A stretch of 64,000 bases of DNA from a virus. The DNA is taken from positions 64,001 through 128,000 of IMG/VR virus record IMGVR_UViG_3300034101_006340. One strand, given 5' to 3'. Each line of letters starts with the position of its first letter. The stretch's first letter is position 1. The notes below the pieces were generated by a model, which searched no databases, was not told the DNA's origin, and saw only the letters and a program-made list of their open reading frames with translations. The position numbers and the translations under genes are program-made. This document shows positions 1 through 52,002 of the stretch, piece by piece.

Positions 1-2
1 TA

Positions 3-1433: not shown

Positions 1434-1435
1434 AT

Positions 1436-3948: not shown

Positions 3949-3993
3949 ATATTGTGTTTGGTTTTGGTTTGTAACTAACAATAGGAGATCAGT

Positions 3994-4359: not shown

Positions 4360-4367
4360 TAATGGTG

Positions 4368-4412
4368 ATTATCACGGGTGGTCTTCCTATAAGGCCACCT
4401 GTGATAATTTCT
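4368..4412 (+). terminator. Intrinsic terminator-like hairpin after ssb
   Basis: ATTATCACGGGTGGTCTT-CCTAT-AAGGCCACCTGTGATAAT forms an 18-bp stem with two G:U pairs that work only on the + transcript; followed by TTCTT. Confidence 0.7.
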
Positions 4413-4430
4413 TCTAATATAAAGATTATA

Positions 4431-34776: not shown

Positions 34777-37700
34777 TTATTGTTGGCCTTCTTTAGAATC
34801 TTTATTACTATTCTCCCATTGACGTATCGCATCTTGTACAATATTACCTAGCGGACCTTCTATTAATGCTTTGAGAGCATCAGCACCATTAACATTAATA
34901 TCCCAAGGCTTATTTTGTACCAAATTAACATTAACTTCCGGAGGAATATTTAACTGTTGTAGTTGTTGAACAAATGTATCAAATTTTTGAGCAAATGTCG
35001 CCAAACCGGCCAAACCACCCTGAGCACCTCCTGCGCCCTGAGCAGCTTCACCATTACCATTTACACCGCCACCGCCTCCTCCTGCTAATGCTTGATTTAG
35101 CTGTGTGATTGTTGCTCCATATTGTACTAAAACTTGATTAACACCAGTTAATAACGTTCCAAATATAACCATTTGTTTATTAACATCACCATAAGAACTA
35201 GGATCAAAAGCTGCTTGTGACGCTTGGCCAACAGCTTGTTGTACTTGTGGAGAAATTGCTGGCGCTCCACCAGGACCGCCGCCTTGAGCCTGCTGCCCCA
35301 TCATGGCTTGTTCACGAGCATTGGGATTAGCTTGTTGTTGTTCAGCATATGCTTGTTGATATGAAACACCTTTGGTTTTGGAGCTTGAATATGCGTCTCT
35401 TCTGCGTTGCATTTCCGCCTCATAAGAGTCTTTTCTTTCTTTCATCTGGTCCTTATAAGATTGTCTTCTGCTAGCCATTTCGTCTTCATATGCCTGCCCC
35501 CCTTTTTTAAGATATACAGTACCACCACCACTATAACTATTACTGTTAATAGATCTTAATAAACCTAGATTTTTTTGCGTAGCTTTACGATTAACAACAA
35601 ATTCACCGGGAGTCAACATAGCTGGAACAGTATCAGTACCTCGTGGTTGATAGTTAACCAATGTTCCAGTACTAGCATAAATTAATCCGCCAAAAGCTTT
35701 ATTCTGTGCTCGTGCGGCTCTGTCTGCTATTCTTCTCTCAGCGCCTTTCTGAAAAGCCGCTGCTTGTTTGTTTGCTAAGTCTTTTAGAACAGGATCATCA
35801 CCAGCACACTCGGCCCTAATTTGTGCATCTAATTCTCTCTCTTTGGTTTTTTTATCTTCAAATCTTGCAATTTGTTCTTCTTGATCCAGTTTAACAAATT
35901 TAGTTGATCTTTTCTCACGATCCAAATATGTCTGACTAACACCAGCATTGCGATAAAATATATCCATACCGGGGACAGTTACCGCATACATATTCGGTAG
36001 ATTATTTTGTGCGTCTGCACCGCCATTAGTAGCATTTAAAAGAGTTGTAACAGCATTCTTAAAAGCATCAATTAATGGACTATCTGCTTGTATAGTATTT
36101 ATATCTCCTTTTTCTCTACGAAATTCATTTTCTATTTTAAATCTTGGAGATGCTTCTAAAAGCTCTTTACGACCCAAACCGGAAGACTGCATAGCTTCGT
36201 CTTCTCTTGCTAAGGATGTTTTTCTAAAACCGTCCATTATTTCTCGTAATCTACTAGAATAATCCATTCTAATTTGACGAGCATTTTTTGCTCTATCTTC
36301 ATCGTCTGGATTCATCTTAGCTTCTTCTTCTGCTCTAACAGCTGCTCTCTCGCTTTGTGCATCTCTTTCCAGACGAGATTTTTTCTCTGCAACACATTGA
36401 TAAAATCCTTGTCTATTCGATTCTGCATCTGCTCTGGCTCTTGCTGCTCTGTCTCCTTGTTCTTTTAGTTTAGCCAAATCTTCTCCTTGAACAGCTCCTA
36501 TGGCATCAAAAGCCGAAGCCACAGAATCAAGATTTGGAATACCTCCATCTTGCAAATAAACCACTCCGCCTTTACTCATTGCTCTTTGTCCACTATTGAT
36601 AGCTTTGAGCAACGGCAAATGTTTTTGTGTAGCGGCACGATTGACCACAAATTCCCCAGGAGTTAACATCGCTGGTACGGTGTCCGTGCCTCTTGGTTGA
36701 TATGGGATCAACATACCAGTATTTGCATATACAACTCCGCCACTACTAAGCTGTTCGGGATCTACTTGTAATTGACTGGTATTACCTCTACTACTGGTTT
36801 TTATATTATATCCTTGTCTCCATCTGTCTCTAATTTTATCGTTTTTAGTACTATAATATGTAAATTCTCCTAAGCGATTTCTCCACCAACCATAAGAACT
36901 TTTATATTGACTTTGAGGAGACTTACCTCCTGTAATTTTTCTACCACCTCTTTCCGCTTGTGCTCTTATCGCCCAGTTACGATCTCTCATATCTTCTTCT
37001 TTGCCAGATGGTTGTCCGAATTTAGCTACAGGAGTAAAACCCTCTGCTTCTGGTGCTGCTTCTCCGCGCCTTCTGGCTTTTCCAGCTTCTTGTGCAAATC
37101 CTACTGCTTCTTGATCTTCTACATCTCTCATATCCATTGGCGCTCCGCCAGGAGCAAATGCTGCTGTTCTGGTATGCACCTGAGATGCTGCTGTTCGTGT
37201 AGCAGCTTCTCCTTTTGCTTGTCCAAGAGCATTTCCTCTAACTGATTGATCAACCATAGTGCTTCTTTGATCATATGCGGTTGTACGATATGATCCTTGT
37301 TTATCTTTAGAATAAAATGCTGTTGTGGTAAATAAATTTTTATCAGGCGCTGGTGGCATATTACCAGCGACAATCTGCTGACTAGCAAATTCTTTATAGG
37401 TTAATTCATCATAATAGTTTGGTCTTTCTATTGCTTTTTTAGCCTCGGCTTGCACCTTGGCTTCTTCTTTGAAGTCTTCCGGGCGTGGTGCTTCTTGTTC
37501 TGGTTGACCAATATCGGGCCCGCCAGGGGGGACTTTACCTTCTTCCGGGGGTGGTATTGGTTCTCTGGTCATGGGCCTATCCCGCCCAGCATCTTGAATT
37601 TCTTGAGCCTGTTTCATTAACTGCCATACGGCTAATATTCCAGCAAGTATAGTTAATCCCGTACTAAGTCTCGATTTCTTATTTGATCGAAATGCAATAG

Positions 37701-40700
37701 CATTATCTTTAACAAATTGTGGCCAAGATCTTGGCTTAAAGCCAGGAAAATCGGAATCATCAAAACCCTTAACTAAATTATCATAGTCTGCTGATGGTTT
37801 TTTAGCTCCTGCTTTATTAGCCATATCATCCAAAACTCGTTGTCTCATAGCTGCTACTTTGGTATCGTAAAGCTGTTTACCTAAAGAGTCATCCATCATT
37901 ATTTTGGTGGCTTGATCATTAAGCACAAGATTACCACTGCTATCAATATCAAAACCATTATTTTTAATCTTGGTTAATGTGTCCTGAATTGTTGTGTCTG
38001 GAACTTCGCCTAAAGCTTTTTGTATGGCGCTTGTTTCATTAGCACCTTTTCCTATGGCATCTTTAAAAGCTTGGTCAAAAACAGTATTATTCTTTAGATC
38101 TGCTAAGTTTTTAGTAGCGGCATCTTTTAGAGCAGAACCCGATCCGCTCTGGTAAAATAAATCAACCACTTCGTTACCAATCTTTTTTGTAGACGCTTCA
38201 TAAATCTCTCTAGCATTTTTAACTGCTTCAGTAAATTTTTGAGCTCTCCTACCAGCAAACATTCCTTTAGTATAATATGTTTCTGGACCTTTTACTGTTG
38301 TAGCAGTATCGTCTAATGGTTTCACGCCAGCATCGTCTGCGGCTTTAGCAGTAGCATCATCTGCGGTTTTAGCAGCAGCTCGTTCCGCTTTGATTTTATC
38401 AAGCGTATCTTGGGAATTACGTCTTAGTCTATCAGCTGCTTTTTTAGCTTGTGCCGCATCTCCTCTACGAACAAGCTGTTCATCGAGTTCTATTAATCGT
38501 GCTTTAGCTTCTTGTGTATAAGACCCACCACCACCTTTGCCCCCAGACTTTCTTCCTGCAATAATCTCATCAGCCTGGCCTTGTATTCTTTCTATAGAAA
38601 GCCTATTGGGTGGTACACTATTCCATCCTCCACGAGAGATAAAATCTGCTTCAGCGGCAGTTTTTATATCAACATCAGAGATTGTATCTAAAGACCCATC
38701 TTTAATTCTTTGATTCAAAGCTTTTAGTCTTGCGTTCGCATAATCGATAGGAGCAAAATTATTTCCGTTTCCATCGACAGGATAAGTAAAGTCTGGATCG
38801 CTTTCTCTGCGAATAATACTTTCTGATAATGTTTTTCTTTCATCTACAAATGCTTTAATTTTATCGGCAGCCATTTTAGACTGTTGTTGCATAGGGTCCA
38901 CAACCTGTGTTTTGGCCGGAGTGCCTACTTCATCTGCTGCTTTTGCTGTTTGTTCTACTGTCTCTGTAGCACCTTTTCTAGTTAATATTTTGGCCCGACC
39001 ATCTTTTAATAGTTTACCAATTTTGGTTTTACTAATAAGTCTGCCCGCTGGGCCTGCTGCTAATGCTCCTCCTCCGAGCGCAACATCCGCAATATCAAAT
39101 AACATTTCTGCGGTTCCTGCCGAAGACTTATAACCAGCTTGTTTCTCTAATAGTTTTTCTTTTTCTGTTTTAATTAATTCATCAGCAGCAGAAGCAGCCA
39201 TAATTCCACCAACGCTACCAGCAATAGTAATACCAGCAGTTCCTAGAGCAGCAGCAGTCGCTCCAACAGCAGCGGCTGGTAAAGCTATTGGGGCTGCGGC
39301 AGCTACAGCAGCAGTTAATAAAAGATTTCTTAATCCTATTTGCGATCCTTTTCTAAGGCCTTCATCTCTAATATCTTCTGGTAACATACCTAATTGAGAT
39401 AATTCAGATAATTCTTTTGCCGAGGTGGACTGTACGCCAAGATTCATATCTATTAATCCCTCTAAAGCAGCAGTACTTCCACTACCAGCTATATTTCTTA
39501 GAGAGATAAGATCTTCTAACAAAGATTTTCTTTGTTGGTATTCTGGTTGTTTGGCTTTCCATTTCGGTTTGTTATTTATTAGATACGCTATTTCGTCGGT
39601 GATGGGCTTGGTAGTTTTTGCTGGTGTCCAACGAGGAAGGTTTTCATGTTCTTGACGCAAATCTTTTATTCTTTGATCTATGCCTTTTAGATCAGTTCTT
39701 TTAGACAAAATATCGTGCCATATATCCAATTTTGGTCCCAAAGAACGTACTTGATCTGATGCATCGGTTTGAAATTCTTTTCTATCATTTGTGGTACCAG
39801 CCCAACTAAATAATTCTTTAATATTTTCTCCTATCCACCACGAATCATCCAGATAGGGATTGATGATAGATAAGGTTTGCAGGTCTTTAGACAGAATATT
39901 TGTAAGGTCTATAGAATCTATAGGGCTGTCGGCCCCGCCAGCAACATTGAGACCAGCAAGCATAGCATCGGCTCTACCAAACTGTTTTTTTAGGCCGATT
40001 AATGTTTGAATATCTGTAGAAAATTGTTGCACCCTAGGAATTTTATTACTAGACAGCTTACCTCCCGGTAAAAGATCTTTCTGGATTCTTATCCCCTCTT
40101 GAGTCTCCACCTGTGCCATTGACGAAGACCCTGCTTCAGATAAATCCTTCAAAATATCATTAATTAAAGCCTGTTTCAAATTATCTGGTTGCACACCTTC
40201 TGGTTGCGGAGATTCCATAGTAACTTCTATAGCCTTATTGATACTATTTTTTAGGCTGTCTGATGCTGCAACGGGTTGTTTGGAACCCTCTGCAAGATAA
40301 ACAACTCCTCCTTGACTATATTGATTGGGAGTTGATCCGCTATTAATAGATTGTAATAAGGGTAAATGTTTTTGTGTGGCGGATCTATTTACTACAAACT
40401 CTCCCGGAGTTAACATGGCAGGAACAGTATCTGTTCCACGAGGCTGAAAATTAATCAGTTTACCAGTACTAGCATAGACTACTCCACCCGTAGCTAAAGG
40501 TTGTGGTTTTTCCAAACCCATAGCGGCAGCACGAGAAGTAAACCAATTCAAACTTGGTAATGGGCCGAGATTATTAGCTAAACCAAATAATACCTGTGCT
40601 TCTTGGGCTTTTTGATATATATCTTGACCAGCTTTATTATAGCTGTCTATAAATTCTGCCATTCTAGCAGCATTGTCCGGCTGTGCTTTAGTATCAAAGA

Positions 40701-43700
40701 AATAGTCTTGGCCAACCCAATCACCAATTCCACCATACCAATTCATCAATCTTGTTAATCCATCTCCTATCCAACTAAGAGTCATAGGATCAAAATATGG
40801 CATAGTACTATTTTCTGCCCTTAAATTAAACAAGTCATTTCCAAATTTTTGTATTAAATCTTTTCTGGTACTAGTTTGTGGAAATTCATTATACGGGTTA
40901 AAAATCAGTTTAACAAGATCATTAACATTGGCATTTTCTGGTAATGCAACAGATAAGTCACTAGCTGCTAGTTTGCCGTCTCGTCCAACGGTCTGGATCT
41001 TAGTTCCTTGAAGTTGTGTACTTATTAGGTTTTGCCAATCTCCGCTAAGAGCCATCGATCCAACCTTGCCGAATCTAGCTGAAGTACCATAGCTTCTGAA
41101 TACATCAGCTATATTTGCTTTCTGATCATAAAATTGTTTTAATAAAGACGTATTGCCTTGAGCTATATCAGCAAAAGCACCAGCTGCTCCACCTATCATT
41201 AGGTATGCATTATTTAACATATTAGCAGCTTGTGGACTATTAGCTTTTGGCATTAGTGCTTGGCTAATATAGCCACCAGCTTGATTAAATAATCCGCTCA
41301 TATAAGATGATGCATCTTTATAATTTCCAAGAGCAGCTACTCTCATGGCTTGAGTACCACCGTAATTAGCAACCCATCCTGTTGGCAACCCGCCTAAATT
41401 ATTAAATAACTGCATTGCTCCACGAATCATAAGTAAAGTTGCTTGTGTATTTTCTTTATCAGAAAAAACCTTGCCTTTAGTTATTGCGGAATTGTCTACT
41501 TTGGCTGCGGCCCCTGCCATCATAGTTTGTAGGCTCTGTAGTTTATCTACAAAAAAGTCCCCTATGGGAACACTGATAGCATTATCACTAAAACCAGCAA
41601 AAATATCTCTGCCTGCTGTACCAGCCCCACCCGGCACATCTAGGGCTTTTAACAAACCTACTGGACCACCTTTAAAACTTAATCTAACTAAATCCTTTAC
41701 CGCTTGTTGTTTAGCGGCATAATCTGGATCTTTATTTAGTTGCGCTTTTAATAAATCTGCAATTGCAGTACCCACATTTGGATCAGCTAAATTAGAATTA
41801 GCTAAAATATCTGCTCCTGTATATTTTTTATTTGTAAATAATCTAGATCTCTCTGTATCCAGTTGTTGGAACAGTGTTTTATCAATCTTATCAGGTAATA
41901 AATATGTAAAGGGTGCTCCAACAAATTCTTTTTTGGCACCATCAAATAATTTACCAGTATACTGAGTATATTGTACGGGTATGTCGATTCCTTGACCCAT
42001 ACCTACAGGTAAAACATCTCGAATATTGGCAGGTAAATCTAATTTAATTGGATCTGTTATAGTACTAGTTTTTATTCCGCTCTTATTTATAAGATCATCT
42101 AATGTTTGTTTAGAAGCCCTTTCTGCAAATCCTTTGCCTAAATATGTATCTATGGCGCCATTTACCATAAAAGGTAGTTCCGTTTCTCCTCCGTTAATAG
42201 TATCTGTAATCTTAAAACCTTCAGCTAATGTAAACTCATCCAATGGTCCTGCTAAACCAGGAATACCGAATTTAACTTTCTCCTTTGAAGCTTTAGCCTT
42301 ATTACTTCTTGCTAATTCAAGTCCTTTAATAAAGTCTGCTTCCATGCTTTTTTGTGCAACAGTAATAGCGCTGACATTTTGTAGTCCGTCGAATATAGAT
42401 AAATTTGTACCAATACTATCATTTGTAAGAGTTGCGCTTGGAATTGTATTACTAAATAATCCAAATAATATCTCTTGTAGTTTACTGCCCTCTTCTGTAT
42501 AATTAAGATTTCCTTTTAAGAATTCTCTAGTATTAATTAGTAATTCATTAAGCTTTGCATTTTCCACATTAGTTTCTGCTATTTTATCAGCTAAAATTAA
42601 ATCTAAACCTTGTCCTGTTGCTAATTCTGGATATTTAAGAACATTTGTTCCCACAATATTCCAGTCTCCAGAATAGTCTTTACCAAAATATGGACTTTCA
42701 GGTAAAAATTGAAGATTAGTTTTTGCTTTTGTGGCCGATGCCACAGCATGTGGTTTACCAGCACCCAGATACATGGCATATGTATCCTGTGTATAAACCC
42801 CAAGAGCGGGTCTACCAGAAAGCTCTTGACTATCAATAGGTACTTCTCCGGCCATAACTGGAGAACGACCTGTTTTATAGAATACTCCAGCAGATTTACC
42901 TTGTTTACTTGTTGTAATTTTATTAGTTGTTTGACTAAAAACATCTCCTTCTTTCAAAGGATCTCCAAAATTAGATGCATCTATCGTAGCAATAGGTAGA
43001 GTAACTGTTTCGATTCCAGCAAATTTTGTTTTGATACTTTCGGCTTTTTTTTCTGCGTCGTTTTTAGAAAGCTTATCAATTGTTTCTAAAGCAGGATCTT
43101 GGAAATATAACCTGTCGTCTGGTTTTGCTGGGCTCAGAGCACTAGCTCTATTCATTAAAGCATTATTGTGTTTGTAACTATATTCATAATCATTTCTTAC
43201 AATATCTGGAGTATATCCTGGAACTGGTGGACCAGGAATAATATTTGGAGAATCTAACCCATACCCCTCTTTTCCAGGAATTGCTGAGGCCATCATTTTA
43301 TAGGTAGATGTATAAACATCGGGCAGTGCAAATAATGGAGATGTGGCAATATCCCATGCTATTTTATTAGAATCTACGTCTTTAAGAATTGGTTTTTCTA
43401 AAGTCTGACCGGCTCCTAGTGTTTTATCACGATCTCCATAATTTGTAATGAAGCCTCCGGCAGCATAATAAGAGACTTTGCCTCCGTTGGCATAACCATT
43501 ATTAATGGATTGTAGTAATGGTAAATTAGCTTGGGTAGCTTTGCGATTAACAACAAATTCTCCAGGCGTCAGCATTGCTGGTACAGTATCCGTACCTCTT
43601 GGCTGGAAATTAACCATTTGTCCAGCAGATGCATATATCAATCCGCCTGTAGCAATTCCGGGTGCTGCTGGAGCTGCGCCGGGTGCTGGGGGCGGAGCTT

Positions 43701-46700
43701 TCATTATTGATACAATACTATTGACATTAGTAGCAATATCTCTAAGTTCTGCATTTTGAAAAGTTAAAACTGCTTGTTGTAATCCTTCAACTATAAGCTT
43801 GGCATTACTTTGAGCAATTCTATCTGCTAGCGTAGCATCAAGTTGTCCTAACAATCTAGTAGCTTGAGATTGTTCCACAATGGCCTGATTATAGTATTGA
43901 ATTGCTGCTGCTGTTGCTGGATCTTGTTCTGGATTACGTAGACTATTGAGCACTTGTTGCATTAGTGGGGATACTCCCATCCCAGCTTCTTGAAGCATCG
44001 TTTCTAAAACATTGGCTCTGACTTGATTACCTTGTTGGCTGTCTCCTAAAAATGGTAAAATATCCTGTAGTGCTCCGAGGGTTTCTTTTCTTTCATTGGC
44101 GAAAGCTGCTTGAGCTTCTCTCATAGCTTCTGTAGCGCTTGCTCCACTTTCCAATGCTTGTATATAAGCTCTTTGTGCTCCAATACTATTTTGTATAGTA
44201 TTTTGTTGTCCATTTATATTTCGCTGTAGTCTGATTAAGGCGTTGTTTGTTGATTCTAATTCATCTGGTGTAGCAGTAACTATTTTCTCTAAAAAGCTAA
44301 CTCTTCCAGCGGCTTTTTGTTGGGCTTGTTGAATAGCGTCCAAAGCAGCACTGGCTTTTTCAGTGTTATTGGCCATATCTTCTAGCGCGGCTCTGTTTTC
44401 TCTGAGTGCTATATTAGTATTTTTTAGTTCATTATTGAACTTAACAAAATCGGCTGCGCCAGCTAGCCCTTGCTCGGCACTCTGTCGTACACTAGATTGT
44501 TGCATTTGTCTAGTGGTATCCAAAGCCAAAAATTGATTAAAAATATCTGTTGGATCTGTTAATCCACCGGTCTGTCCAGCAACCTCCGCATCTCGTTTGG
44601 CAAAAGCGTCCGCAACCTTTATAGTTTTACCAAGAGCTTTAGCTAAATTTAAACTAGCGTCTGTAACAAGTTGTATAGATTTTCTAGACCGGTCTCTGGC
44701 GCTGACTTCTAGTTCTATAATACGATTAAGATTATTAGTATATTGATTTAAAACACTTTGATAATGTTCTAATGCTTTTATAACGCTTTGTTGTGCATTT
44801 TTGGCTACTTCTGTGACGCTTCCTAGTCCAGCAATTTTTTCAGATAGTTTTGCATAATCAACACTATCTTCGCCTTCCTTGCGTATATCAGTAATACTAT
44901 CTCCAACTTCTTTGGCTAGTTTATCAGCTAATTCTGGTGGCAAACCTAGATCTTTTAATGTTGTTTTTAAGTTTCTGTCAATAATTCTAGTTAATGCTTC
45001 ATTAGTAACATTTCCTCCTTGATCTCTAAGAGTATTATTTATAGTAGACATTACCGATGAAGTAATAGTCTCACCAAAAGTTGCTAACTGCGTCATCTCC
45101 GCTGATCTATTACCATATAAAGCTCCTCCAACAGAAGCAGCTCTTTGTACTTCGGGAGCGCTGTATGCTGTAGGATTTTGAATAATATTTTTTGCACCTA
45201 AATTAATATCCCCGGCCTGTGCTTGACCTTGAAATGCGGAAGTTGATAATTCAACGCTATTTTTCATCTTTTCTAAAGAAAATACCGTTGCATTAATGGC
45301 TTGATCCATATTATTGAACATACGTTGTAATGAACGAGTGTAAACACCAACAAGATTTCCAAAATTTTTCTGCGTTTTTTCTCTTAAGGCGGTTTCACTT
45401 CGTTCTCTTAACATAGCTGTTCCGGTTATAGAAATAAGATCCTTAATTCGAGCTTGTCTAGCTTCTTCCGTTAAAGATGTATCTAGTTCAATAGATCTTA
45501 TATGAGTAGCTAGTGAAGCATCTGCCATAACTAAACTTCTCTTAAAATCTTCTGCTTCTGGTCCACCTAAAATATCTTCTACAGATTCTCCTGCTTTGAT
45601 TCTAGAAACAATAACTTGATTAATATTTTCAGCAACAGGCTTAAAGATTGCTGCTGATTCACGACCACTGACTGCTGATGTTCTACCACGAATATTTTCT
45701 AGACCTTGTTGTCCAGCAAATAAGGTTTTCAAATATGGAATAATACCTTCTGTTTCTAAAATTTGTCCTCGTGCTGATGCTTGTCTAGAAGCAGTAATAT
45801 CACCAGAAAAGAAACTTTGTAGATTGGCTGATAGAACATCCAGGCCATTCACCAAACCAGCGGAAGCACTGTCTTGACTCATTTGCCGTTGTCTTTCAGC
45901 TGCTTGAGCTGCTGTAATAACTTTGCTCTGAAGTTCATTTCTTAAATCTATTTGATTAACATCTTTGTTAAGTTTTTCAAATCCTTCAGCCAATCCTTCT
46001 ATTGCTGTTTCGACTCTTTTTTTCTCTAATTCTATTGCAAAATTACGTACAGCATTGTATGCTTGTCGTGCTGCTTCCGCAACCACGGCCAATACTTGTA
46101 ATCTACCAGCTACTCTCCCTATAGTCCCTGCAAAGTTAGCCATCCTAGGATTAGTTGCACGAAGACTATCTGCCATATTAGTAGCTTCTTGTATCAATTG
46201 TTGGGTTGCTCCATAAGTTTGAGAAGCACCAGCTATTGCTCCACCAACACCCGCTTCTGTTGCGCTAGATTTTGTATTTAAAACATCTGCAACTAGAGTT
46301 CCAACGGTCATAATAGCCATATTACGCATTGTTCTGGCTTGATATTCTGCTCCTTGTACTGCTCCTGGAGAAGTCGCCCCTTCTGCTGCGGCAGTACCTT
46401 CTACCGCTCGTCTTCTAGCACTAATTTCTTCGTCTAATGCCGCTCGTCTTGCTCTTGCAGTATCCTCATCAATAGCACCAGAGGCCAAATCAGCTTCTAT
46501 TCGTTGTCTAGTGGTTTGAGTTAATCTTTGGTTCATTTGATCCAAAGTTCTGCTATCTCTAGCCAAGATCTGAAATACTCTAGCTAAATCATCTCCATCC
46601 GCTCCTAAAGCATCTAAGTCTATTGATGTTCCAGTAACACCGCCACCGAATGCTACAGTTTCATATGCTTGTCTTCTTCTATCGTTTTCTCCTGCTCTAA

Positions 46701-49700
46701 GTTCAGCTTGAACTTCTTCTTCGGTTCTAGCAACTCCGGTTGTTGCCGATGGGGTGGTTCTAAGAGTAGCTTCAGCAGCCGCTCTTGCTCTATCAACCTG
46801 CTGTTGTACAAGACCCAGAGCATCTTGTATAGCGGCGCCTGAAATATCTCCTAATTGTTGTCTTATAGCAATTTCATTTTGCGTTGCTGTTGTTGCTTGT
46901 TGCACAGCTGTTTCTAAATCGAATATAACATCCGCAGCAGCACCAGCTGCTCTTGCAGCGGCTAAATCTGCCTGAGCCGCTCTTTCTGCTTCTGCCGCCG
47001 TGGCTTGATAGCTCCTATTCAATAAAGCAGCAGATCTTGATCCATTAACTCCTAATGCTTGTAATGTTTCTGCTAATTGCGTTAATGCTGTGGTAGCTTG
47101 TGTACTAGCACCTATAGTTTCAGCGGAAACTGTGTCTGGTCGTGCGGCCGGGGCTCGTCGGCCTCGTCCTCCAAAAAAGAATTTCTGGATTCGTCCACCG
47201 TTATTAAATCCTAATGCTTCGGTAGCTTTCTTGCGAATAACAAAACTACCAACCTCAAGAGGTACTGGACCAAATGTGTCAGTATTACCAGAGCCAGGAA
47301 CGATACCAACTCCTCCACCACTAGCATATCTATCAGCATAATTCATTTTATTAAGTTTAGCATATCCTATGCTTTTAGCTAGTTTCGGCCCTATTACAGC
47401 TTCGCCGGGTGTTAATAATGCTGGAACATAACCCCCGTCTGCAAATCTGCTTAATGGTCCACCAATATTTTTCTTACTTAATTTCATTCCCATAGAACGA
47501 ATAATATTATCTACTTCCGCATCAGATACTTCGCTACCATAGCTATCTAATAAAGCATATAGAGTTTCTGATAATCCTGTTATACGTCCTTGATTTGGAA
47601 CAGCAGCTCCTTTTAATAATGCCTGATAGTCTGGCAAGGCTTTTTGTGCTTTAGATAATTTGCGTTGTATCGAAGCTTTTTCATCGGGATCAGTTTCTGA
47701 TGCCAGATCGTTTTGCAATTGGGATATGTATCCTGGGAAAGATTTTTGAATATGACTATCTATAGCTTGATCAAAAGATAATTGACCCGTCTTTTTAAAT
47801 GATCCTATGGCTTCTTCTGCTTGAGTATAAACTAAATTGCCTGCTTCGGCAGCGAGTGCGGCATTAGCCCGTGCTTCCCTAGCACTAGCCGCAGGTGTTT
47901 TAGTTGCTGTTGCTCGACCAAACGGCAGAATTTCTTCTATCTCAGAATACCATCCATCATATTGTTTTATTAAATCTGGTTTCAGTGCTTCAAAAGCATC
48001 TGGTTCAATATTATCAGGTATTTTTACTAATTTTTTACCCAAAGACATTCCTGCTCCACCAGATTCAAACACCCATTGCTGAATTTTTTGTGCATACTCT
48101 GCTAATGGTTTTGGTAATGGTACACCAAGATGATTTCCCCATCCAGGACCACCATATTCTCCGGCTTGGGCATATGCTTGCTCTGCAAATAATTCGTATT
48201 GTTTTGGTTCAAGAGGCACAAAACCTTTTGGTCCACGAGATCCTCGTCTAATATTTTTGGTAGATCTATCTTTAACACCTCCGGGAGAACCGTCTTCAAA
48301 GCCCTGTACTAATCCACCCAAATTAAATCTATCAGGATTTTCTGTAAAATATCTTTCAAACTCGCTTCTTGCTTTATCAAAAGCGCTGCCGTTTAATGTT
48401 CTCTTAACTTCTGTTTCTATATTAGATGGTAAATTAAATAAAGAGGCCGCATTACCAAGACCAGCGGGAAAATCTATGGCCCTAGTAGCTTCTAGAGCAT
48501 CTACGTTGATTTGATAGCCTAATTTTTGAGCTAACGCCTGTTCTAATAACGATCCCTCGATATTACCTTCACCAGTTTTGGTATACATTTTTTGATCATC
48601 AAAAGATTCTGGTTCTTGGTATCGATATGACTGAACTCCTTTTTTCTCTGCTGCTTTAATATTTTCTTCATTATCATCAATAAATTTTTCAATAGCTGCT
48701 AAATTAGCAGCTTTTCCTGCGGCAATATTTGTTCCAAGCCCTTTGCTTACGCCGGTAATATCGGTAGCTTGATATGGCAACCCGAATCTATTTAATGTGG
48801 CGGCAACTAAATCGGCTGTGGTTTGTGGTCTTGCTGTTAAAACCCTAGTAAGTCTTCTAACTATGCCTGGATTTTTTTGTTCAACCTCGGACAATCTTTG
48901 TGCAAGTCTTGAGGGCCTAGCTTTTGCTAAACTTGCTTCTACTTTATCTCTTAAAGAATAACTAGCAATATCTTCTTTACCGCTCTCATCGACCATTTTT
49001 GTTCCAAAAGCTAATGTTTCATCAAAATCTATAGCTAGTGGTCTAATTGGTCCAACAATTGGTGCTTCTGTTTGACTTAATGGTCCTAGTGCTTCTGTTG
49101 CTGTTGTATCTTTAGCAAAATCTAGACTGGCTTGTCTTTGTCTTTCTCTTAATTTTTTAACATCTCCTAGATACTGTTTACTAAATCCTCTAATCATTGC
49201 AGTATATTTTTGACCGTTCAATGGATTGTCTGGACCAAGATCTAGCGTCCATTCTTTATCACTGCTATAATCTATTGGTTGCAACCCTGCTATGGCTACT
49301 TTTCTTAATCCTCTTTTACGAGTTTTTTCGTCTGTATCAACTTGTTTAGCTTTATTCAAAATACCAGCGACAACCAAAGGATCAAGTCTGCCGGTAAGAA
49401 TACCGTCTTTTCTAAGTTTTCTTTGTAAATTAGAGGGAATAGCAACTCCACGATCCCGTATTCCTGCTTCATTACCAAGATCTGCTAATGTTTTTACTAA
49501 AGTGTCTGTTATAGCCTGTTGAATAGACTGATCTTGTTTTTTATTTTTGATAGCAATCTGACCAATTTCACCATATTGTTCTACTATTACAGGGTCTATC
49601 TCTTCTGTTTCTCCGCCAACAGCAAATTTTTGAATTAGTCCACCAAAAAATTTTTTCTTTTTGCCAGAATTCGCCTTGAACGATCCTCCTGCGCCTGTGA

Positions 49701-52002
49701 TTTTAGTAGCATCAGTAAATAGTCTCACGTTCCCTAATGGTATTGTGTTTATATTACTGTCTAATTGTGTATTTGCTAATTGTGATGCTAGTGGAGCTGC
49801 CGCCGGAGAATCTTGACTTCCTAATATAGATGATGCTATAATTTTTTTTCCTATTTCTTTTTCGGAAACTGATTCTTTATAGCTTTTAATTTCAACTGGT
49901 GCCCCAGATGTATCGATTCCGTCTAGTCTAGCATACCGATTAGATGATAAAGCAACCCCTTCAACATCTCTTACAACATTTTGAAAAGCGTCCCCTCTTT
50001 TTGTAGGGGAGCGGGTTTGCATATATGTTGTTATCGAAGGAAGTTCTTTGTATCTTTGATCATTCTGAAGCTCAGACACATCGATACTTTGTGGAACAAT
50101 ATTAAAATTAAACTTATCTTTTGGATTAAATCTATTGGGCTTAGATCCTCCAGCATTAAATGGTTTACCTGATTCTTTGTCTAATTGTGATCTATCTAAT
50201 TGCACTTGATTTAATAGTTGGCTATTGCCCGCATATTTTTGAATAGGCCCCCCATAAGCATATCTACGACTTCTAGACGAGTATAATTTACCGCCAGAAT
50301 TGAAGCCCTCAAGATTTTTTCTTCCTGCTCTAGCTACCCCTGCTTTACTCATCACAAATTCACCAGGAGTCAACATTGCCGGAACACTATCTCTATTTCC
50401 AACTCCAGGAACACTACCGCCCTTGGCAAACCCAATAATTCCACCCATATTTGCTCGTCGCCCACCAGTTCCCCTAAAACCTCCGCCAAAACCTCCGGCA
50501 AATTGAGTAATAGCGCTTACGCCTCTAAATGCTGCCATCACACCTATAAGTGGTAATAATCCTTTAGTGGCATCTGCGACTTTGATCAATGCACTAGCTA
50601 AATTTAATCCTATCTTTACCAAAGCTTGAAAAGATTGGCTCTCTCCAAAGGATCTCATTAAGGCAGAAAATTCTTCTCGTACTTTTTGGAATTGTACAGC
50701 AAGTGCTAGTTGTCCTTTTGCTGCTTCTGCCGCCAATGACCCCTGACCAGCTTGTGCAATTTTTAATGCTTCTTGCGCCGTTGCAAATTGTTGAATAAGT
50801 GGAAGCACTTTACCGATTTGTCGGAAACCACCAAGTTCTTCTACAATTTCACTAAATTTTAAGTCTCGTGGATCTAACCTTCCTAATCCATCTGCTAATC
50901 TTCTAACCGCTTCGTATGGACCAACGAATTTGCCTTCTAGATCTGTTAATGTGACTCCATATTCTTTAAGAGCTTCAATAGTGTCTGCTCTTTGAATACG
51001 AGTAAAAATAGTTCTTAAACCAGTAGCGATAGTTTCTGCGCTTTCACGAGTTGTGGCACGAACACTTGTGAAAACAGCAATAAATTCATTTAATGCATCT
51101 GTGCCTTGACTAACGCCATTACTAGCAGCAGCAAACACACCACCAGTACGCTGAATAGCGGTAATAAGATCACTAGCTTCAACAGCAAACGCAGCAGCAA
51201 CAGCATTGATAGATCCTAATGCTCCTTCTAATTGACCGGCGCTAATTCCGAACTGTCTCATTAAAGCAATACTACCTTCAACAGTTTCATTTAAACTATC
51301 AAACGATGGAGCTAATGCGCTTTTTGCTAAGGCTTCTAATGCTTTTCTGGTATCATTAGCGTTTAAACCAGCTTGAGCTAGTGTAACAGCAACATTTGCA
51401 ATATCTGATGATGCAACACCGAACCCTGTGGATAATCTTGTTATTTCACCAACTAGAGAGCCTAATCCTGCTTTGGTTTCATTGGTAACTTGTGTTAATC
51501 TTACTATTTGCCTATCAAATTCAATATATTGTTTAATGCCAGCAGACAAAGCATTGGTAAAACCATATATAACTGATGTAACGCTACTAAAAGCAGCAAA
51601 ACGTCTAACTGCTAATCCAGCTTGTCTACCGAAATCTTCAAATTCAGTACGGGTTTGTGCGACAGCTCTTGCAGCATTTGTTGCTGCGTTTGCTGTAACA
51701 TTAATTTGAGCTGGTATATTATTAGGCAATCTAATATTGCCAACGCTAGCCATTGCAGCCGCTAGATTATTGAATGCTGTTGTAGCATTAGTAGCGGATG
51801 CTGCCGTTTGGTTAAGAGTAGCACTTAATGCATTAAGTCTTGTGTTTAAATTACCAACATTTCTACTTACTCTTGGATCTATATTAACATTAACATTAGC
51901 ATTAATAGTACCTAGTTGTCTGCGAATATTAGAAACTACTTGTCTAATATTAGCTGGACCCCTAAGATTAATTTCAGCAGTAAGATTAAATCCTCTAGCC
52001 AT
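34777..52002 (-). CDS. Giant tail tape measure protein (5741 aa) with embedded enzyme-like domains
   Basis: N-terminal TP901-type TMP core (ASDLITAIQRTGG...ESAETIATGLRTIFTRI), Ala/Gln-rich helical tracts, repeated DTVPAMLTPGEFVV modules; lies after the tube and chaperone genes. Confidence 0.92.
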   Translation of the reverse strand: MARGFNLTAEINLRGPANIRQVVSNIRRQLGTINANVNVNIDPRVSRNVGNLNTRLNALSATLNQTAASATNATTAFNNLAAAMASVGNIRLPNNIPAQINVTANAATNAARAVAQTRTEFEDFGRQAGLAVRRFAAFSSVTSVIYGFTNALSAGIKQYIEFDRQIVRLTQVTNETKAGLGSLVGEITRLSTGFGVASSDIANVAVTLAQAGLNANDTRKALEALAKSALAPSFDSLNETVEGSIALMRQFGISAGQLEGALGSINAVAAAFAVEASDLITAIQRTGGVFAAASNGVSQGTDALNEFIAVFTSVRATTRESAETIATGLRTIFTRIQRADTIEALKEYGVTLTDLEGKFVGPYEAVRRLADGLGRLDPRDLKFSEIVEELGGFRQIGKVLPLIQQFATAQEALKIAQAGQGSLAAEAAKGQLALAVQFQKVREEFSALMRSFGESQSFQALVKIGLNLASALIKVADATKGLLPLIGVMAAFRGVSAITQFAGGFGGGFRGTGGRRANMGGIIGFAKGGSVPGVGNRDSVPAMLTPGEFVMSKAGVARAGRKNLEGFNSGGKLYSSRSRRYAYGGPIQKYAGNSQLLNQVQLDRSQLDKESGKPFNAGGSKPNRFNPKDKFNFNIVPQSIDVSELQNDQRYKELPSITTYMQTRSPTKRGDAFQNVVRDVEGVALSSNRYARLDGIDTSGAPVEIKSYKESVSEKEIGKKIIASSILGSQDSPAAAPLASQLANTQLDSNINTIPLGNVRLFTDATKITGAGGSFKANSGKKKKFFGGLIQKFAVGGETEEIDPVIVEQYGEIGQIAIKNKKQDQSIQQAITDTLVKTLADLGNEAGIRDRGVAIPSNLQRKLRKDGILTGRLDPLVVAGILNKAKQVDTDEKTRKRGLRKVAIAGLQPIDYSSDKEWTLDLGPDNPLNGQKYTAMIRGFSKQYLGDVKKLRERQRQASLDFAKDTTATEALGPLSQTEAPIVGPIRPLAIDFDETLAFGTKMVDESGKEDIASYSLRDKVEASLAKARPSRLAQRLSEVEQKNPGIVRRLTRVLTARPQTTADLVAATLNRFGLPYQATDITGVSKGLGTNIAAGKAANLAAIEKFIDDNEENIKAAEKKGVQSYRYQEPESFDDQKMYTKTGEGNIEGSLLEQALAQKLGYQINVDALEATRAIDFPAGLGNAASLFNLPSNIETEVKRTLNGSAFDKARSEFERYFTENPDRFNLGGLVQGFEDGSPGGVKDRSTKNIRRGSRGPKGFVPLEPKQYELFAEQAYAQAGEYGGPGWGNHLGVPLPKPLAEYAQKIQQWVFESGGAGMSLGKKLVKIPDNIEPDAFEALKPDLIKQYDGWYSEIEEILPFGRATATKTPAASAREARANAALAAEAGNLVYTQAEEAIGSFKKTGQLSFDQAIDSHIQKSFPGYISQLQNDLASETDPDEKASIQRKLSKAQKALPDYQALLKGAAVPNQGRITGLSETLYALLDSYGSEVSDAEVDNIIRSMGMKLSKKNIGGPLSRFADGGYVPALLTPGEAVIGPKLAKSIGYAKLNKMNYADRYASGGGVGIVPGSGNTDTFGPVPLEVGSFVIRKKATEALGFNNGGRIQKFFFGGRGRRAPAARPDTVSAETIGASTQATTALTQLAETLQALGVNGSRSAALLNRSYQATAAEAERAAQADLAAARAAGAAADVIFDLETAVQQATTATQNEIAIRQQLGDISGAAIQDALGLVQQQVDRARAAAEATLRTTPSATTGVARTEEEVQAELRAGENDRRRQAYETVAFGGGVTGTSIDLDALGADGDDLARVFQILARDSRTLDQMNQRLTQTTRQRIEADLASGAIDEDTARARRAALDEEISARRRAVEGTAAAEGATSPGAVQGAEYQARTMRNMAIMTVGTLVADVLNTKSSATEAGVGGAIAGASQTYGATQQLIQEATNMADSLRATNPRMANFAGTIGRVAGRLQVLAVVAEAARQAYNAVRNFAIELEKKRVETAIEGLAEGFEKLNKDVNQIDLRNELQSKVITAAQAAERQRQMSQDSASAGLVNGLDVLSANLQSFFSGDITASRQASARGQILETEGIIPYLKTLFAGQQGLENIRGRTSAVSGRESAAIFKPVAENINQVIVSRIKAGESVEDILGGPEAEDFKRSLVMADASLATHIRSIELDTSLTEEARQARIKDLISITGTAMLRERSETALREKTQKNFGNLVGVYTRSLQRMFNNMDQAINATVFSLEKMKNSVELSTSAFQGQAQAGDINLGAKNIIQNPTAYSAPEVQRAASVGGALYGNRSAEMTQLATFGETITSSVMSTINNTLRDQGGNVTNEALTRIIDRNLKTTLKDLGLPPELADKLAKEVGDSITDIRKEGEDSVDYAKLSEKIAGLGSVTEVAKNAQQSVIKALEHYQSVLNQYTNNLNRIIELEVSARDRSRKSIQLVTDASLNLAKALGKTIKVADAFAKRDAEVAGQTGGLTDPTDIFNQFLALDTTRQMQQSSVRQSAEQGLAGAADFVKFNNELKNTNIALRENRAALEDMANNTEKASAALDAIQQAQQKAAGRVSFLEKIVTATPDELESTNNALIRLQRNINGQQNTIQNSIGAQRAYIQALESGASATEAMREAQAAFANERKETLGALQDILPFLGDSQQGNQVRANVLETMLQEAGMGVSPLMQQVLNSLRNPEQDPATAAAIQYYNQAIVEQSQATRLLGQLDATLADRIAQSNAKLIVEGLQQAVLTFQNAELRDIATNVNSIVSIMKAPPPAPGAAPAAPGIATGGLIYASAGQMVNFQPRGTDTVPAMLTPGEFVVNRKATQANLPLLQSINNGYANGGKVSYYAAGGFITNYGDRDKTLGAGQTLEKPILKDVDSNKIAWDIATSPLFALPDVYTSTYKMMASAIPGKEGYGLDSPNIIPGPPVPGYTPDIVRNDYEYSYKHNNALMNRASALSPAKPDDRLYFQDPALETIDKLSKNDAEKKAESIKTKFAGIETVTLPIATIDASNFGDPLKEGDVFSQTTNKITTSKQGKSAGVFYKTGRSPVMAGEVPIDSQELSGRPALGVYTQDTYAMYLGAGKPHAVASATKAKTNLQFLPESPYFGKDYSGDWNIVGTNVLKYPELATGQGLDLILADKIAETNVENAKLNELLINTREFLKGNLNYTEEGSKLQEILFGLFSNTIPSATLTNDSIGTNLSIFDGLQNVSAITVAQKSMEADFIKGLELARSNKAKASKEKVKFGIPGLAGPLDEFTLAEGFKITDTINGGETELPFMVNGAIDTYLGKGFAERASKQTLDDLINKSGIKTSTITDPIKLDLPANIRDVLPVGMGQGIDIPVQYTQYTGKLFDGAKKEFVGAPFTYLLPDKIDKTLFQQLDTERSRLFTNKKYTGADILANSNLADPNVGTAIADLLKAQLNKDPDYAAKQQAVKDLVRLSFKGGPVGLLKALDVPGGAGTAGRDIFAGFSDNAISVPIGDFFVDKLQSLQTMMAGAAAKVDNSAITKGKVFSDKENTQATLLMIRGAMQLFNNLGGLPTGWVANYGGTQAMRVAALGNYKDASSYMSGLFNQAGGYISQALMPKANSPQAANMLNNAYLMIGGAAGAFADIAQGNTSLLKQFYDQKANIADVFRSYGTSARFGKVGSMALSGDWQNLISTQLQGTKIQTVGRDGKLAASDLSVALPENANVNDLVKLIFNPYNEFPQTSTRKDLIQKFGNDLFNLRAENSTMPYFDPMTLSWIGDGLTRLMNWYGGIGDWVGQDYFFDTKAQPDNAARMAEFIDSYNKAGQDIYQKAQEAQVLFGLANNLGPLPSLNWFTSRAAAMGLEKPQPLATGGVVYASTGKLINFQPRGTDTVPAMLTPGEFVVNRSATQKHLPLLQSINSGSTPNQYSQGGVVYLAEGSKQPVAASDSLKNSINKAIEVTMESPQPEGVQPDNLKQALINDILKDLSEAGSSSMAQVETQEGIRIQKDLLPGGKLSSNKIPRVQQFSTDIQTLIGLKKQFGRADAMLAGLNVAGGADSPIDSIDLTNILSKDLQTLSIINPYLDDSWWIGENIKELFSWAGTTNDRKEFQTDASDQVRSLGPKLDIWHDILSKRTDLKGIDQRIKDLRQEHENLPRWTPAKTTKPITDEIAYLINNKPKWKAKQPEYQQRKSLLEDLISLRNIAGSGSTAALEGLIDMNLGVQSTSAKELSELSQLGMLPEDIRDEGLRKGSQIGLRNLLLTAAVAAAAPIALPAAAVGATAAALGTAGITIAGSVGGIMAASAADELIKTEKEKLLEKQAGYKSSAGTAEMLFDIADVALGGGALAAGPAGRLISKTKIGKLLKDGRAKILTRKGATETVEQTAKAADEVGTPAKTQVVDPMQQQSKMAADKIKAFVDERKTLSESIIRRESDPDFTYPVDGNGNNFAPIDYANARLKALNQRIKDGSLDTISDVDIKTAAEADFISRGGWNSVPPNRLSIERIQGQADEIIAGRKSGGKGGGGSYTQEAKARLIELDEQLVRRGDAAQAKKAADRLRRNSQDTLDKIKAERAAAKTADDATAKAADDAGVKPLDDTATTVKGPETYYTKGMFAGRRAQKFTEAVKNAREIYEASTKKIGNEVVDLFYQSGSGSALKDAATKNLADLKNNTVFDQAFKDAIGKGANETSAIQKALGEVPDTTIQDTLTKIKNNGFDIDSSGNLVLNDQATKIMMDDSLGKQLYDTKVAAMRQRVLDDMANKAGAKKPSADYDNLVKGFDDSDFPGFKPRSWPQFVKDNAIAFRSNKKSRLSTGLTILAGILAVWQLMKQAQEIQDAGRDRPMTREPIPPPEEGKVPPGGPDIGQPEQEAPRPEDFKEEAKVQAEAKKAIERPNYYDELTYKEFASQQIVAGNMPPAPDKNLFTTTAFYSKDKQGSYRTTAYDQRSTMVDQSVRGNALGQAKGEAATRTAASQVHTRTAAFAPGGAPMDMRDVEDQEAVGFAQEAGKARRRGEAAPEAEGFTPVAKFGQPSGKEEDMRDRNWAIRAQAERGGRKITGGKSPQSQYKSSYGWWRNRLGEFTYYSTKNDKIRDRWRQGYNIKTSSRGNTSQLQVDPEQLSSGGVVYANTGMLIPYQPRGTDTVPAMLTPGEFVVNRAATQKHLPLLKAINSGQRAMSKGGVVYLQDGGIPNLDSVASAFDAIGAVQGEDLAKLKEQGDRAARARADAESNRQGFYQCVAEKKSRLERDAQSERAAVRAEEEAKMNPDDEDRAKNARQIRMDYSSRLREIMDGFRKTSLAREDEAMQSSGLGRKELLEASPRFKIENEFRREKGDINTIQADSPLIDAFKNAVTTLLNATNGGADAQNNLPNMYAVTVPGMDIFYRNAGVSQTYLDREKRSTKFVKLDQEEQIARFEDKKTKERELDAQIRAECAGDDPVLKDLANKQAAAFQKGAERRIADRAARAQNKAFGGLIYASTGTLVNYQPRGTDTVPAMLTPGEFVVNRKATQKNLGLLRSINSNSYSGGGTVYLKKGGQAYEDEMASRRQSYKDQMKERKDSYEAEMQRRRDAYSSSKTKGVSYQQAYAEQQQANPNAREQAMMGQQAQGGGPGGAPAISPQVQQAVGQASQAAFDPSSYGDVNKQMVIFGTLLTGVNQVLVQYGATITQLNQALAGGGGGGVNGNGEAAQGAGGAQGGLAGLATFAQKFDTFVQQLQQLNIPPEVNVNLVQNKPWDINVNGADALKALIEGPLGNIVQDAIRQWENSNKDSKEGQQ
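35540..35697 (-). repeat. TMP internal module copy (GGLIYAS..QPRGTDTVPAMLTPGEFVVNRKATQKNLGLLRSIN)
   Basis: Protein-level repeat read from the translation. Confidence 0.9.
36595..36747 (-). repeat. TMP internal module copy (GGVVYAN..QPRGTDTVPAMLTPGEFVVNRAATQKHLPLLKAIN)
   Basis: Protein-level repeat. Confidence 0.9.
40340..40494 (-). repeat. TMP internal module copy (GGVVYAS..QPRGTDTVPAMLTPGEFVVNRSATQKHLPLLQSIN)
   Basis: Protein-level repeat. Confidence 0.9.
43500..43653 (-). repeat. TMP internal module copy (GGLIYAS..QPRGTDTVPAMLTPGEFVVNRKATQANLPLLQSIN)
   Basis: Protein-level repeat. Confidence 0.9.
47221..47450 (-). repeat. Two divergent TMP module copies (FADGGYVPALLTPGEAVI; GSGNTDTFGPVPLEVGSFVIRKKAT)
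   Basis: Degenerate versions of the same module. Confidence 0.7.
50345..50450 (-). repeat. First TMP module copy (FAKGGSVPGVGNRDSVPAMLTPGEFVMSK)
   Basis: Marks the end of the canonical TMP core. Confidence 0.85.

Follow-up and report, generated by a model that had tools for sequence, protein, structure and literature searches.

The tape measure protein and its HAD domain

The window analysed here is a 64,000-nt stretch of DNA that corresponds to positions 64,001-128,000 of IMG/VR record IMGVR_UViG_3300034101_006340. The gene of interest (P0001, Table 1) is flanked on the same strand by large ORFs and by fibre-like genes with Mtd_N, YHYH, fn3 and Laminin_G_3 domains; family searches with the small neighbouring ORFs returned no match. 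The encoded protein is a TP901-type tail tape measure protein. Pfam places PF10145 in it with an E value of 1.1e-24, which exceeds the profile's cut-off, the tape-measure families phrog_4211, 28, 167 and 1533 match its N-terminal 1,500 aa (up to 5e-25), and relatives are annotated at source as ‘TP901 family phage tail tape measure protein’. Thus, the phosphatase domain that had been predicted from the sequence to lie inside a tape measure protein does indeed lie in one.

Over all 5,741 aa, Pfam at E≤0.1 reports neither a peptidase nor any further domain besides PF10145. Polyvalent proteins, which are giant injected proteins with several effector domains and a zincin-like peptidase for self-processing, have been described in a paper that is silent on both tape measures and HAD phosphatases (PMC5512222); these carry several effector domains per protein, whereas a single enzyme domain is established in the tape measure studied here. 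A PD-(D/E)xK-like motif upstream of this domain (aa ∼670-706) lacks conservation in the close relatives.

Table 1. Features of the tape measure gene and of the conserved block around the HAD domain (window coordinates; residues numbered along the tape measure protein)
Feature	Residues (aa)	Coordinates	Strand	Basis
Giant tail tape measure protein gene (P0001)	1-5,741	34777..52002	(-)	Single open frame, 5,741 aa
PhageMin_Tail (PF10145) core	187-379	50866..51444	(-)	Pfam match, 1.1e-24
Gly-Gly box GGLIQKFAVGG, upstream edge of conserved block	787-797	49612..49644	(-)	BLAST matches of relatives
Conserved spacer, Gly-Gly box to HAD domain	798-985	49048..49611	(-)	Co-conserved with HAD domain in most relatives
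HAD-fold phosphatase domain	986-1132	48607..49047	(-)	Translation and model
Motif I, D992-F-D994-E-T996 (in LAIDFDETL, aa 989-997)	992-996	49015..49029	(-)	Translation; invariant in 105/105
Motif II, T1056-A-R1058 (in VLTAR, aa 1054-1058)	1056-1058	48829..48837	(-)	Translation; Thr 92/Ser 13, Ala and Arg invariant in 105/105
Motif III, K1097 (in AAGKAA)	1097	48712..48714	(-)	Translation; 103/105, remaining 2 are alignment gaps
Motif IV, D1109-D1110 (in KFIDDNEENI, aa 1106-1115), putative Mg2+ ligands	1109-1110	48673..48678	(-)	Translation and alignment
Companion module dom2 (NIEG..LE / RAIDFPxGLG / PTEVKRT)	1139-1228	48319..48588	(-)	
Gly-Gly box GGLVQGFEDG, downstream edge of block	1229-1238	48289..48318	(-)	Motif conserved in relatives

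The translation shows the four HAD motifs exactly where the original prediction had put them, and the interval that it had given for the domain, 48620-49050, is 3-13 nt off the modelled boundaries; the segment GVQSYRY, likewise named there, occupies aa 1122-1128. The DxDxT pattern occurs a single time across the 5,741 aa. Motif I has the form DxDx[TV] and ends a hydrophobic strand, motifs II-IV follow in order, and the core is a Rossmann-like alpha/beta fold, as is characteristic of the HAD superfamily. The AF2 model has pLDDT values of 80-97, with the motifs borne on five strands, and the strong structure matches in the PDB, BFVD and the Atlas are HAD enzymes without exception. The HAD-type phosphatase domain in the tape measure is thus confirmed, and judging from its motifs and model it is apparently active.

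The domain is not placed in a characterised family by any sequence library at curated threshold. Searches against Pfam with the single sequence, with 19 relatives (E≤1) and with the domain alone (E≤10), using a copy of Pfam without PF26880, gave nothing usable, and the same was true of searches against NCBIfam and against PDB sequences (phmmer and profile).

Conservation and context of the domain

Conservation was assessed on 105 copies of the domain, drawn from clusters at ≤50% identity. D992, D994, T996, A1057, R1058 and D1110 are invariant in all 105 copies; at D1109, a single copy has Glu and the other 104 have Asp. The integrity of the motifs is far beyond chance. An exhaustive profile search finds the domain almost only in giant tape-measure-like proteins of 2,000-7,900 aa, at relative positions that range from 0.02 to 0.77 along the carrier; the complete genomes among the relatives are 150-240 kb. 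The family was not found in cultured-phage records (INPHARED) or in 185,579 reference prokaryote genomes, and tblastn of the domain against 50,697 phage records gave nothing usable. For now, the family is known from uncultured phages alone.

The BLAST matches of most relatives start at about aa 782-790, and the GG-x-V-x-x-F box that follows dom2 is conserved in every aligned relative. One relative, P0106, does not have the HAD domain: its upstream module, including the spacer at aa 798-985, is kept and fused straight to dom2, with aa ∼964-1130 missing. As P0106 lacks exactly the HAD piece, the domain can be regarded as an in-frame cassette flanked by glycine-rich linker boxes.

We also considered dom2 as a PD-(D/E)xK nuclease, which is not supported. 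AF2 gave it a pLDDT <50 within the first model and 55.7 with a 33-sequence alignment, a model too poor to argue against such a fold. An Atlas feature search scored ≤0.78, and among ten short carriers of the module, Pfam reported nothing but a UVR motif in one. Moreover, many distant copies have Thr in place of the ‘K’ of the supposed ExK, whereas the Arg that follows is invariant.

Where the HAD domain occurs, it is invariably accompanied by dom2 and the linker boxes, and this constant pairing with a module that does not look enzymatic would fit a domain that contributes no catalysis to infection and instead has a structural, assembly or length-adding function, or else acts as a phosphoprotein phosphatase during assembly. 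The DxDETL form of motif I is also reminiscent of FCP/SCP protein phosphatases. However, the catalytic residues are near-invariant while overall identity among the copies falls to about 33%, a pattern that looks like purifying selection on catalysis. Furthermore, the domain is missing from 66 of 171 related tape measures and is therefore unnecessary for tail assembly as such. We consider a non-catalytic or assembly role highly improbable.

Relationship to T4 Pnkp and T5 Dmp

The closest solved structure to the HAD domain is the C-terminal 3′-phosphatase of T4 Pnkp (PseT; PDB 5uj0, 1ltq; PF25109 HAD_PNKP). The catalytic residues align with T4 Pnkp Asp165, Asp167, Ser211, Lys258 and Asp278, the roles of which have been described (PMC3592404). 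Motif II, T1056-A-R1058 in the tape measure, corresponds to S211-G-R in T4 Pnkp, and the insert between motifs I and II is 18 aa longer in the tape measure. The ‘IDD’ form of motif IV is common to the tape-measure domain, T4 Pnkp (AIDDR) and T5 Dmp (MIDDH). T4 Pnkp is a soluble early enzyme fused to a 5′-kinase, whereas the HAD domain has no kinase and is embedded in a virion tail protein.

The likeness to T4 Pnkp had led to the original prediction of a polynucleotide 3′-phosphatase that heals RNA or DNA ends made by host anticodon or defence nucleases. If this were so, end healing would also require a 5′-kinase and a ligase, but neither Walker A (GxxxxGK[ST]) nor ligase KxDG motifs were found within the 5,741 aa. 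Similarly, RNA ligase PF09414 and RtcB (PF01139) are unmatched in five complete related genomes; a PF09511 search of these missed its own control. The domain also falls outside Pfam HAD_PNKP, as PF25109 matched neither the domain at E≤10 nor the 19 relatives at E≤1, while the T4 PseT control scored 2.8e-59, and an hhalign comparison of the family with the T4 PseT phosphatase extended over motif I alone (probability 10%). Thus, the original interpretation is supported in part: the HAD phosphatase domain in the tape measure stands, while the idea of tRNA repair is weakened by the missing kinase motif, the unmatched ligase families and the lack of a HAD_PNKP match, and we regard it as unlikely.

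The sequence profiles lead elsewhere, and T5 Dmp is the sole characterised family that they reach, with weak scores. The domain in the window is matched weakly by phrog_415 (E 1.2e-3, 19.6 bits), as are 6 of the 19 relatives (best 3.4e-5), and phrog_2643, a 5′-3′ deoxyribonucleotidase family, matches two of the 19 (2.1e-5). T5 Dmp, a deoxynucleoside-5′-monophosphatase, is a full-length member of phrog_415 (3.6e-57), a family that hits the phosphatase domain of T4 Pnkp as well (3e-24). The HMM of the HAD-domain family scores T5 Dmp at 8.3 bits, a value that is not significant in a database search, and T4 PseT at 0.9 bits. In addition, the spacing between motifs I and II is 64 aa in both T5 Dmp (D22-T86) and the tape measure (D992-T1056), both have a DxxGxxD[IL]xxY insert and a T-A-R motif II, and PF26880 Phage_T5_dNMPase makes up 97-99% of the nearest ESM Atlas clusters. 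These matches indicate a weak sequence affinity towards T5 Dmp and phage nucleotidases rather than towards Pfam HAD_PNKP.

Such an affinity would fit a T5 Dmp-like mononucleotidase, which would act on free nucleotides such as 5′-(d)NMPs, like the pre-early T5 enzyme, but would be supplied by the virion instead of by first-step-transfer DNA. The profile matches are confined to phrog_415 and phage nucleotidase families, and in each of five complete HAD-bearing related genomes the tape measure is the only match to phrog_415, with a second copy in none; of four HAD-less records, one has a short free phrog_415 match, the sample of five genomes and four records being too small for a conclusion. The timing would also be similar, with T5 dmp on the first-step-transfer DNA and the tape-measure domain presumably deployed at the start of infection. 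However, every sequence score is weak (hhalign gives T5 Dmp a probability of 11%), nothing in the tape-measure domain corresponds to the C-terminal third of T5 Dmp, and T5 Dmp is synthesised as a separate protein of 244 aa once the DNA has entered, whereas the tape-measure domain is built into a tail protein. Moreover, few enzyme molecules per particle would be unable to shift a bulk nucleotide pool. We therefore think a T5 Dmp-like mononucleotidase rather unlikely. Structure does not separate it from a Pnkp-like enzyme, because no T5 Dmp structure has been solved. The best explanation of the combined evidence is that the domain belongs to the phage PNKP-phosphatase/T5-Dmp corner of the HAD superfamily.

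Proposed action at infection

The reading that we prefer, to which we give a probability of roughly 0.5, is that aa 986-1132 form a competent Mg2+-dependent HAD phosphomonoesterase without a real cap, which is delivered by the virion and acts on nucleic-acid ends or scarce nucleotides, a substrate class suggested by remote similarity. In the active site, Asp992 would receive the phosphoryl group as an aspartyl-phosphate and Asp994 would serve as the general acid/base, by analogy with T4 Pnkp Asp165 and Asp167 (PMC3592404), with the phosphate held by Thr1056 and Lys1097 and Mg2+ held by Asp1109/Asp1110. As a component of the tape measure, the domain would be present in few copies per tail, and because it is in the N-terminal quarter, it would be expelled at infection just before the DNA; the enzyme would therefore act ahead of the expression of any phage gene. 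With few and probably pore-tethered molecules, scarce substrates would, on this reasoning, be favoured over bulk pools: either phosphate-bearing nucleic-acid termini at the entry site (incoming DNA or broken ends), or nucleotides of low abundance. A folded domain of ∼150 aa may not fit the lumen of the tail tube, and it may travel unfolded and then refold. Thus, the phage probably delivers a finished phosphatase to its host together with the DNA, although it is from sequence and model that we infer the activity, the presence in the virion, the delivery and the substrate.

A precedent for delivery of this kind is gp96 of Thermus phage P23-45, a 5,002-aa tape measure protein that carries a virion RNA polymerase as its N-terminal part (Chaban et al. 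2024, PMC10770324). Virions contain this polymerase within full-length gp96, and it works before phage genes are expressed (PMC10770324). Both proteins are giant tape measures with a nucleic-acid enzyme placed N-terminally, the HAD activity being a predicted one, but the enzymes differ (RNA polymerase versus HAD phosphatase) and we see no sequence relationship between the two. Furthermore, the activity and virion location of the P23-45 enzyme are experimental, whereas the tape-measure HAD is known from its sequence and model. In the papers examined that contain both ‘tape measure’ and ‘haloacid dehalogenase’, the two appear as separate genes.

The domain might instead be freed in the periplasm or cell wall and dephosphorylate envelope components or periplasmic nucleotides, like class B acid phosphatases. 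In class B acid phosphatases, motif IV is a spaced Asp pair, while the tape-measure domain has the DD form of Pnkp and Dmp. AphA (PDB 2aut, 1z5g, 2b82), an enzyme of this class, is among the structures compared, but its Z score is lower than that of T4 Pnkp and there is no sequence-profile link to it; it is also a soluble periplasmic bacterial protein, unlike the tape-measure domain. Moreover, the sequence affinities point to phage cytoplasmic nucleotide enzymes, and by analogy with P23-45 the N-terminal quarter would face the DNA and cytoplasm (PMC10770324). An envelope-side role is very improbable.

If the HAD phosphatase is indeed active and reaches the cell, it points to a function that these phages need ahead of any expression of their own genes, and the small, easily expressed domain provides a handle on that function. 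Tape measure proteins are usually viewed as rulers and channel formers, sometimes with a cell-wall hydrolase. The P23-45 fusion showed that they are able to carry cytoplasm-directed enzymes, and a HAD phosphatase would add a second class of enzyme, unrelated to the first, to this cargo role. Nor is the domain a one-off, as an intact active site is present in more than 100 sequence clusters of metagenomic giant tape measures. A more speculative possibility, which we hold only tentatively, is that the giant tape measures of uncultured phages are modular injection vehicles, in which linker-bounded cassettes are swapped in and out, each of them a pre-made effector that acts at the pore through which the DNA enters, during the first seconds of infection; the target of dephosphorylation by the HAD cassette would be either the end of the phage DNA that enters first or, on the host side, a defence signal or a damaged end. 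If this were true, phage counter-defence would have a general and so far unexplored layer in the cargo of the tail lumen.

Prediction of a HAD fold within the tape measure protein

The original prediction placed an intact HAD-family phosphatase domain inside the tape measure protein, at 48620-49050. Indeed, these coordinates translate, on the minus strand and within the tape measure ORF, to residues 985-1128, and the motifs LAIDFDETL, VLTAR, AAGKAA, KFIDDNEENI and GVQSYRY are all found at residues 989-1128, as first read. The source annotation of close relatives of this protein is 'TP901 family phage tail tape measure protein'. The GC content of the window is 35% overall. Related records represent complete genomes, 150-238 kb in size, and direct terminal repeats occur in two of them, those of 230 and 238 kb.

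The HAD assignment comes from structure prediction, with sequence libraries alone silent; searches of Pfam, NCBIfam and PDB sequences with the domain yielded no match. AlphaFold2, supplied with a 19-sequence alignment (A2), modeled segment residues 7-153 (aa 986-1132) with pLDDT of 80-97, and five strands of the model bear all four HAD motifs. Foldseek comparison to the PDB (E ≤1e-3) returned HAD enzymes only, including AphA, phosphoserine phosphatase, T4 Pnkp phosphatase, HisB-N and Lem4, while the best matches among predicted viral structures (BFVD) were phage 'polynucleotide kinase/3'-phosphatase' and 'PNKP phosphatase domain' proteins. The nearest ESM Atlas clusters are viral, with PF26880 Phage_T5_dNMPase and PF25109 HAD_PNKP (TM by row 0.64-0.69, 139-144 residues aligned). 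The layout had been described as capless, which is approximately right: the spacing is 64 aa from motif I to motif II and 41 aa from motif II to motif III, leaving no space for a true cap, but there is a short helical insert after motif I.

Features of the window, with residue numbers of the tape measure protein
Feature	Window position	Strand	Residues	Basis or remark
DNA polymerase III alpha, split, with intervening exonuclease	21-1433, 1609-2301, 2298-3923	+		domain matches
Tape measure ORF, uninterrupted	34777..52002	-	5,741 codons	translation
Ala-rich hydrophobic stretch	39240-39340	-	4222-4261	C-terminal quarter; Kyte-Doolittle up to 2.0 over 19 aa
dom2 (NIEG..LE / RAIDFPxGLG / PTEVKRT), ~90 aa	48319-48588	-	1139-1228	relatives' alignment
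HAD domain (predicted)	48607-49047	-	986-1132	structure prediction
Nuclease-like motif set (GDAFQNVV ... RLDGID ... VEIKS)	~49880-50000	-	~670-706	upstream of HAD block
Upstream Gly-Gly box GGLIQKFAVGG		-	787	start of conserved block
Downstream Gly-Gly box GGLVQGFEDG		-	1229	end of conserved block
[LV]-T-P-G-E-[FA]-V module, six copies	within 34777-52002	-	544, 1530, 2811, 3864, 5113, 5463	match phrog_35029 (unknown function)
Fibre-like genes, upstream of tape measure	57829-60207, 60204-62777	-		domain matches

Elsewhere in the window, the two DNA polymerase III alpha ORFs carry an NTPase domain and finger, HhH and OB domains, and the exonuclease gene between them is of the RNase_T type. One fibre-like gene has fn3, Mtd_N (major tropism determinant N-terminal) and YHYH matches, and the other Laminin_G_3.

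Conservation of the HAD domain and its companion module

The conserved block between the two Gly-Gly boxes consists of a spacer with no assigned fold, the HAD domain and a companion module (dom2), which directly follows the HAD domain in 101 of 106 HAD copies. Of the 171 collected proteins, 169 have dom2, and 66 of these are long proteins without HAD; a few short proteins also have dom2. The relative P0106 aligns with the window protein upstream up to residue 963 and then passes directly to dom2, missing residues ~964-1130, that is, the HAD domain and short linkers. This junction and the 66 proteins in which dom2 stands without HAD show the HAD domain to be an optional in-frame insert, which behaves as a cassette within a modular protein. 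The invariant residues of dom2 are one Asp, one Gly and one Arg; its AF2 model reached a pLDDT of 55.7 (33 sequences), and Pfam and ESM Atlas searches gave no lead. A reading of dom2 as a PD-(D/E)xK nuclease is conceivable but unsupported, because Thr replaces the lysine of the supposed ExK in many of the distant copies.

A word-indexed search found the region in 31 giant proteins (3,965-7,733 aa). When 1.84 billion cluster representatives were searched exhaustively by profile, 176 proteins matched (E ≤1e-3), nearly all of 2,000-7,900 aa, with no ordinary cellular HAD among them. Separate HMMs, run on the collected proteins, gave the domain counts, positions and residue conservation. The HAD domain is present in 105 proteins (median length 4,808 aa), with two copies in one, at relative positions from 0.02 to 0.77; searches of 50,697 deposited phage genomes and of 185,579 prokaryote species, one genome each, did not turn it up. 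Among 105 HAD copies, with overall identity to the window as low as ~33%, D992, D994, T996, A1057, R1058 and D1110 are invariant, residue 1056 is Thr in 92 and Ser in 13, D1109 is Asp in 104 and Glu in one, and K1097 is present in 103, the remaining two being alignment gaps. The pattern in these aligned sequences is that expected of selection on catalysis; a non-catalytic role is still conceivable.

Relation to T5 Dmp and T4 Pnkp, and possible substrates

By profile, the window HAD domain matched phrog_415 only (E 1.2e-3); among 19 relatives, six matched phrog_415 (best 3.4e-5), three phrog_8630 'nucleotidase' and two phrog_2643 '5'-3' deoxyribonucleotidase' (2.1e-5). Although phrog_415 is labeled 'polynucleotide kinase', its full-length members include T5 Dmp (3.6e-57), a deoxynucleoside-5'-monophosphatase whose gene lies on first-step-transfer DNA, and the T4 Pnkp phosphatase domain matches it at 3e-24. 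An HMM of the tape-measure HAD family scored 8.3 bits against T5 Dmp and 0.9 bits against T4 PseT, both weak. In both hhalign and HMMER the T5 Dmp alignment spans motifs I to II, with weak scores, and Dmp shares with the window domain the 64-aa I-II spacing, a DxxGxxD[IL]xxY insert and T-A-R. Pfam HAD_PNKP did not match the window domain (control: T4 PseT, 2.8e-59). The weak profile matches and the HAD_PNKP miss thus suggest that the domain is a divergent member of the HAD superfamily, from its phage PNKP-phosphatase/Dmp corner, and falls outside both curated families, where HAD_PNKP was compared by Pfam profile and T5 Dmp via phrog_415. The T4 Pnkp counterparts of the conserved residues are Asp165, Asp167, Ser211, Lys258 and Asp278, which serve as nucleophile (Asp165), acid/base (Asp167), phosphate contacts (Ser211 and Lys258) and Mg2+ ligand (Asp278) (PMC3592404).

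All characterised neighbours (T4 Pnkp, T5 Dmp, AphA and the 5'(3')-deoxyribonucleotidases) take a phosphate monoester off a nucleoside sugar, and therefore the best guess by analogy is a nucleotide or nucleic-acid substrate; an AphA-like role on the envelope side, or a phosphoprotein substrate, is conceivable. The proposal that the phosphatase heals ends left by host nucleases is weakened with respect to tRNA repair, since neither a P-loop kinase motif nor a ligase motif was found in the 5,741 aa of the tape measure, and neither an Rnl2-type nor an RtcB ligase in five complete related genomes. In the structures solved to date, each tail has a few copies of its tape measure. Dmp-like clearing of bulk dNMP would be hard to reconcile with so few enzyme molecules per virion, which would instead favour substrates that are scarce where the DNA enters, such as phosphate-bearing termini, either on the incoming DNA or on broken nucleic acids, or nucleotides of low abundance. 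That the HAD domain would be delivered at all we infer from tape-measure biology and one experimental precedent, the RNA polymerase-bearing tape measure gp96 of Thermus phage P23-45 (PMC10770324).

Virion- and tape-measure-fused enzymes are known, and what is new is the enzyme class and the divergent HAD family. Among the papers searched, those naming both 'tape measure' and 'haloacid dehalogenase' report no HAD domain built into a tape measure, and the polyvalent-protein paper (PMC5512222) mentions neither tape measures nor HAD phosphatases. The interest of the domain is that its function is directly testable.

Other modules and cargo of related tape measures

Each [LV]-T-P-G-E-[FA]-V copy sits inside a longer GG...PRGTDTVPAMLTPGEFVVNR...LPLL.SIN unit, and shorter GG-x-V-x-x-F-x-x-GG boxes mark module boundaries. 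The Ala-rich stretch is, by its hydropathy, a candidate membrane-inserting segment; a weaker hydrophobic stretch lies at residues 481-499. The restriction-nuclease-like motif set is common to P0106 and P0018, another relative, and occurs in few relatives, the closest ones being without it. Cargo varies among the related giant tape measures: P0034 has two HAD copies, P0008 is named a thermonuclease-family endonuclease in one source, P0006 has a faint ADP-ribosyl exotoxin match, and P0020 and P0022 have EF-hand matches. In a 244-kb relative (G006), whose tape measure has dom2 with no adjacent HAD, a short match to phrog_415 stands free (E 1.7e-11; G006:C1:134377-134631, minus strand). It lies in an open frame of 106 aa that contains one TAA, and is the only separate Dmp-type sequence among nine related records.
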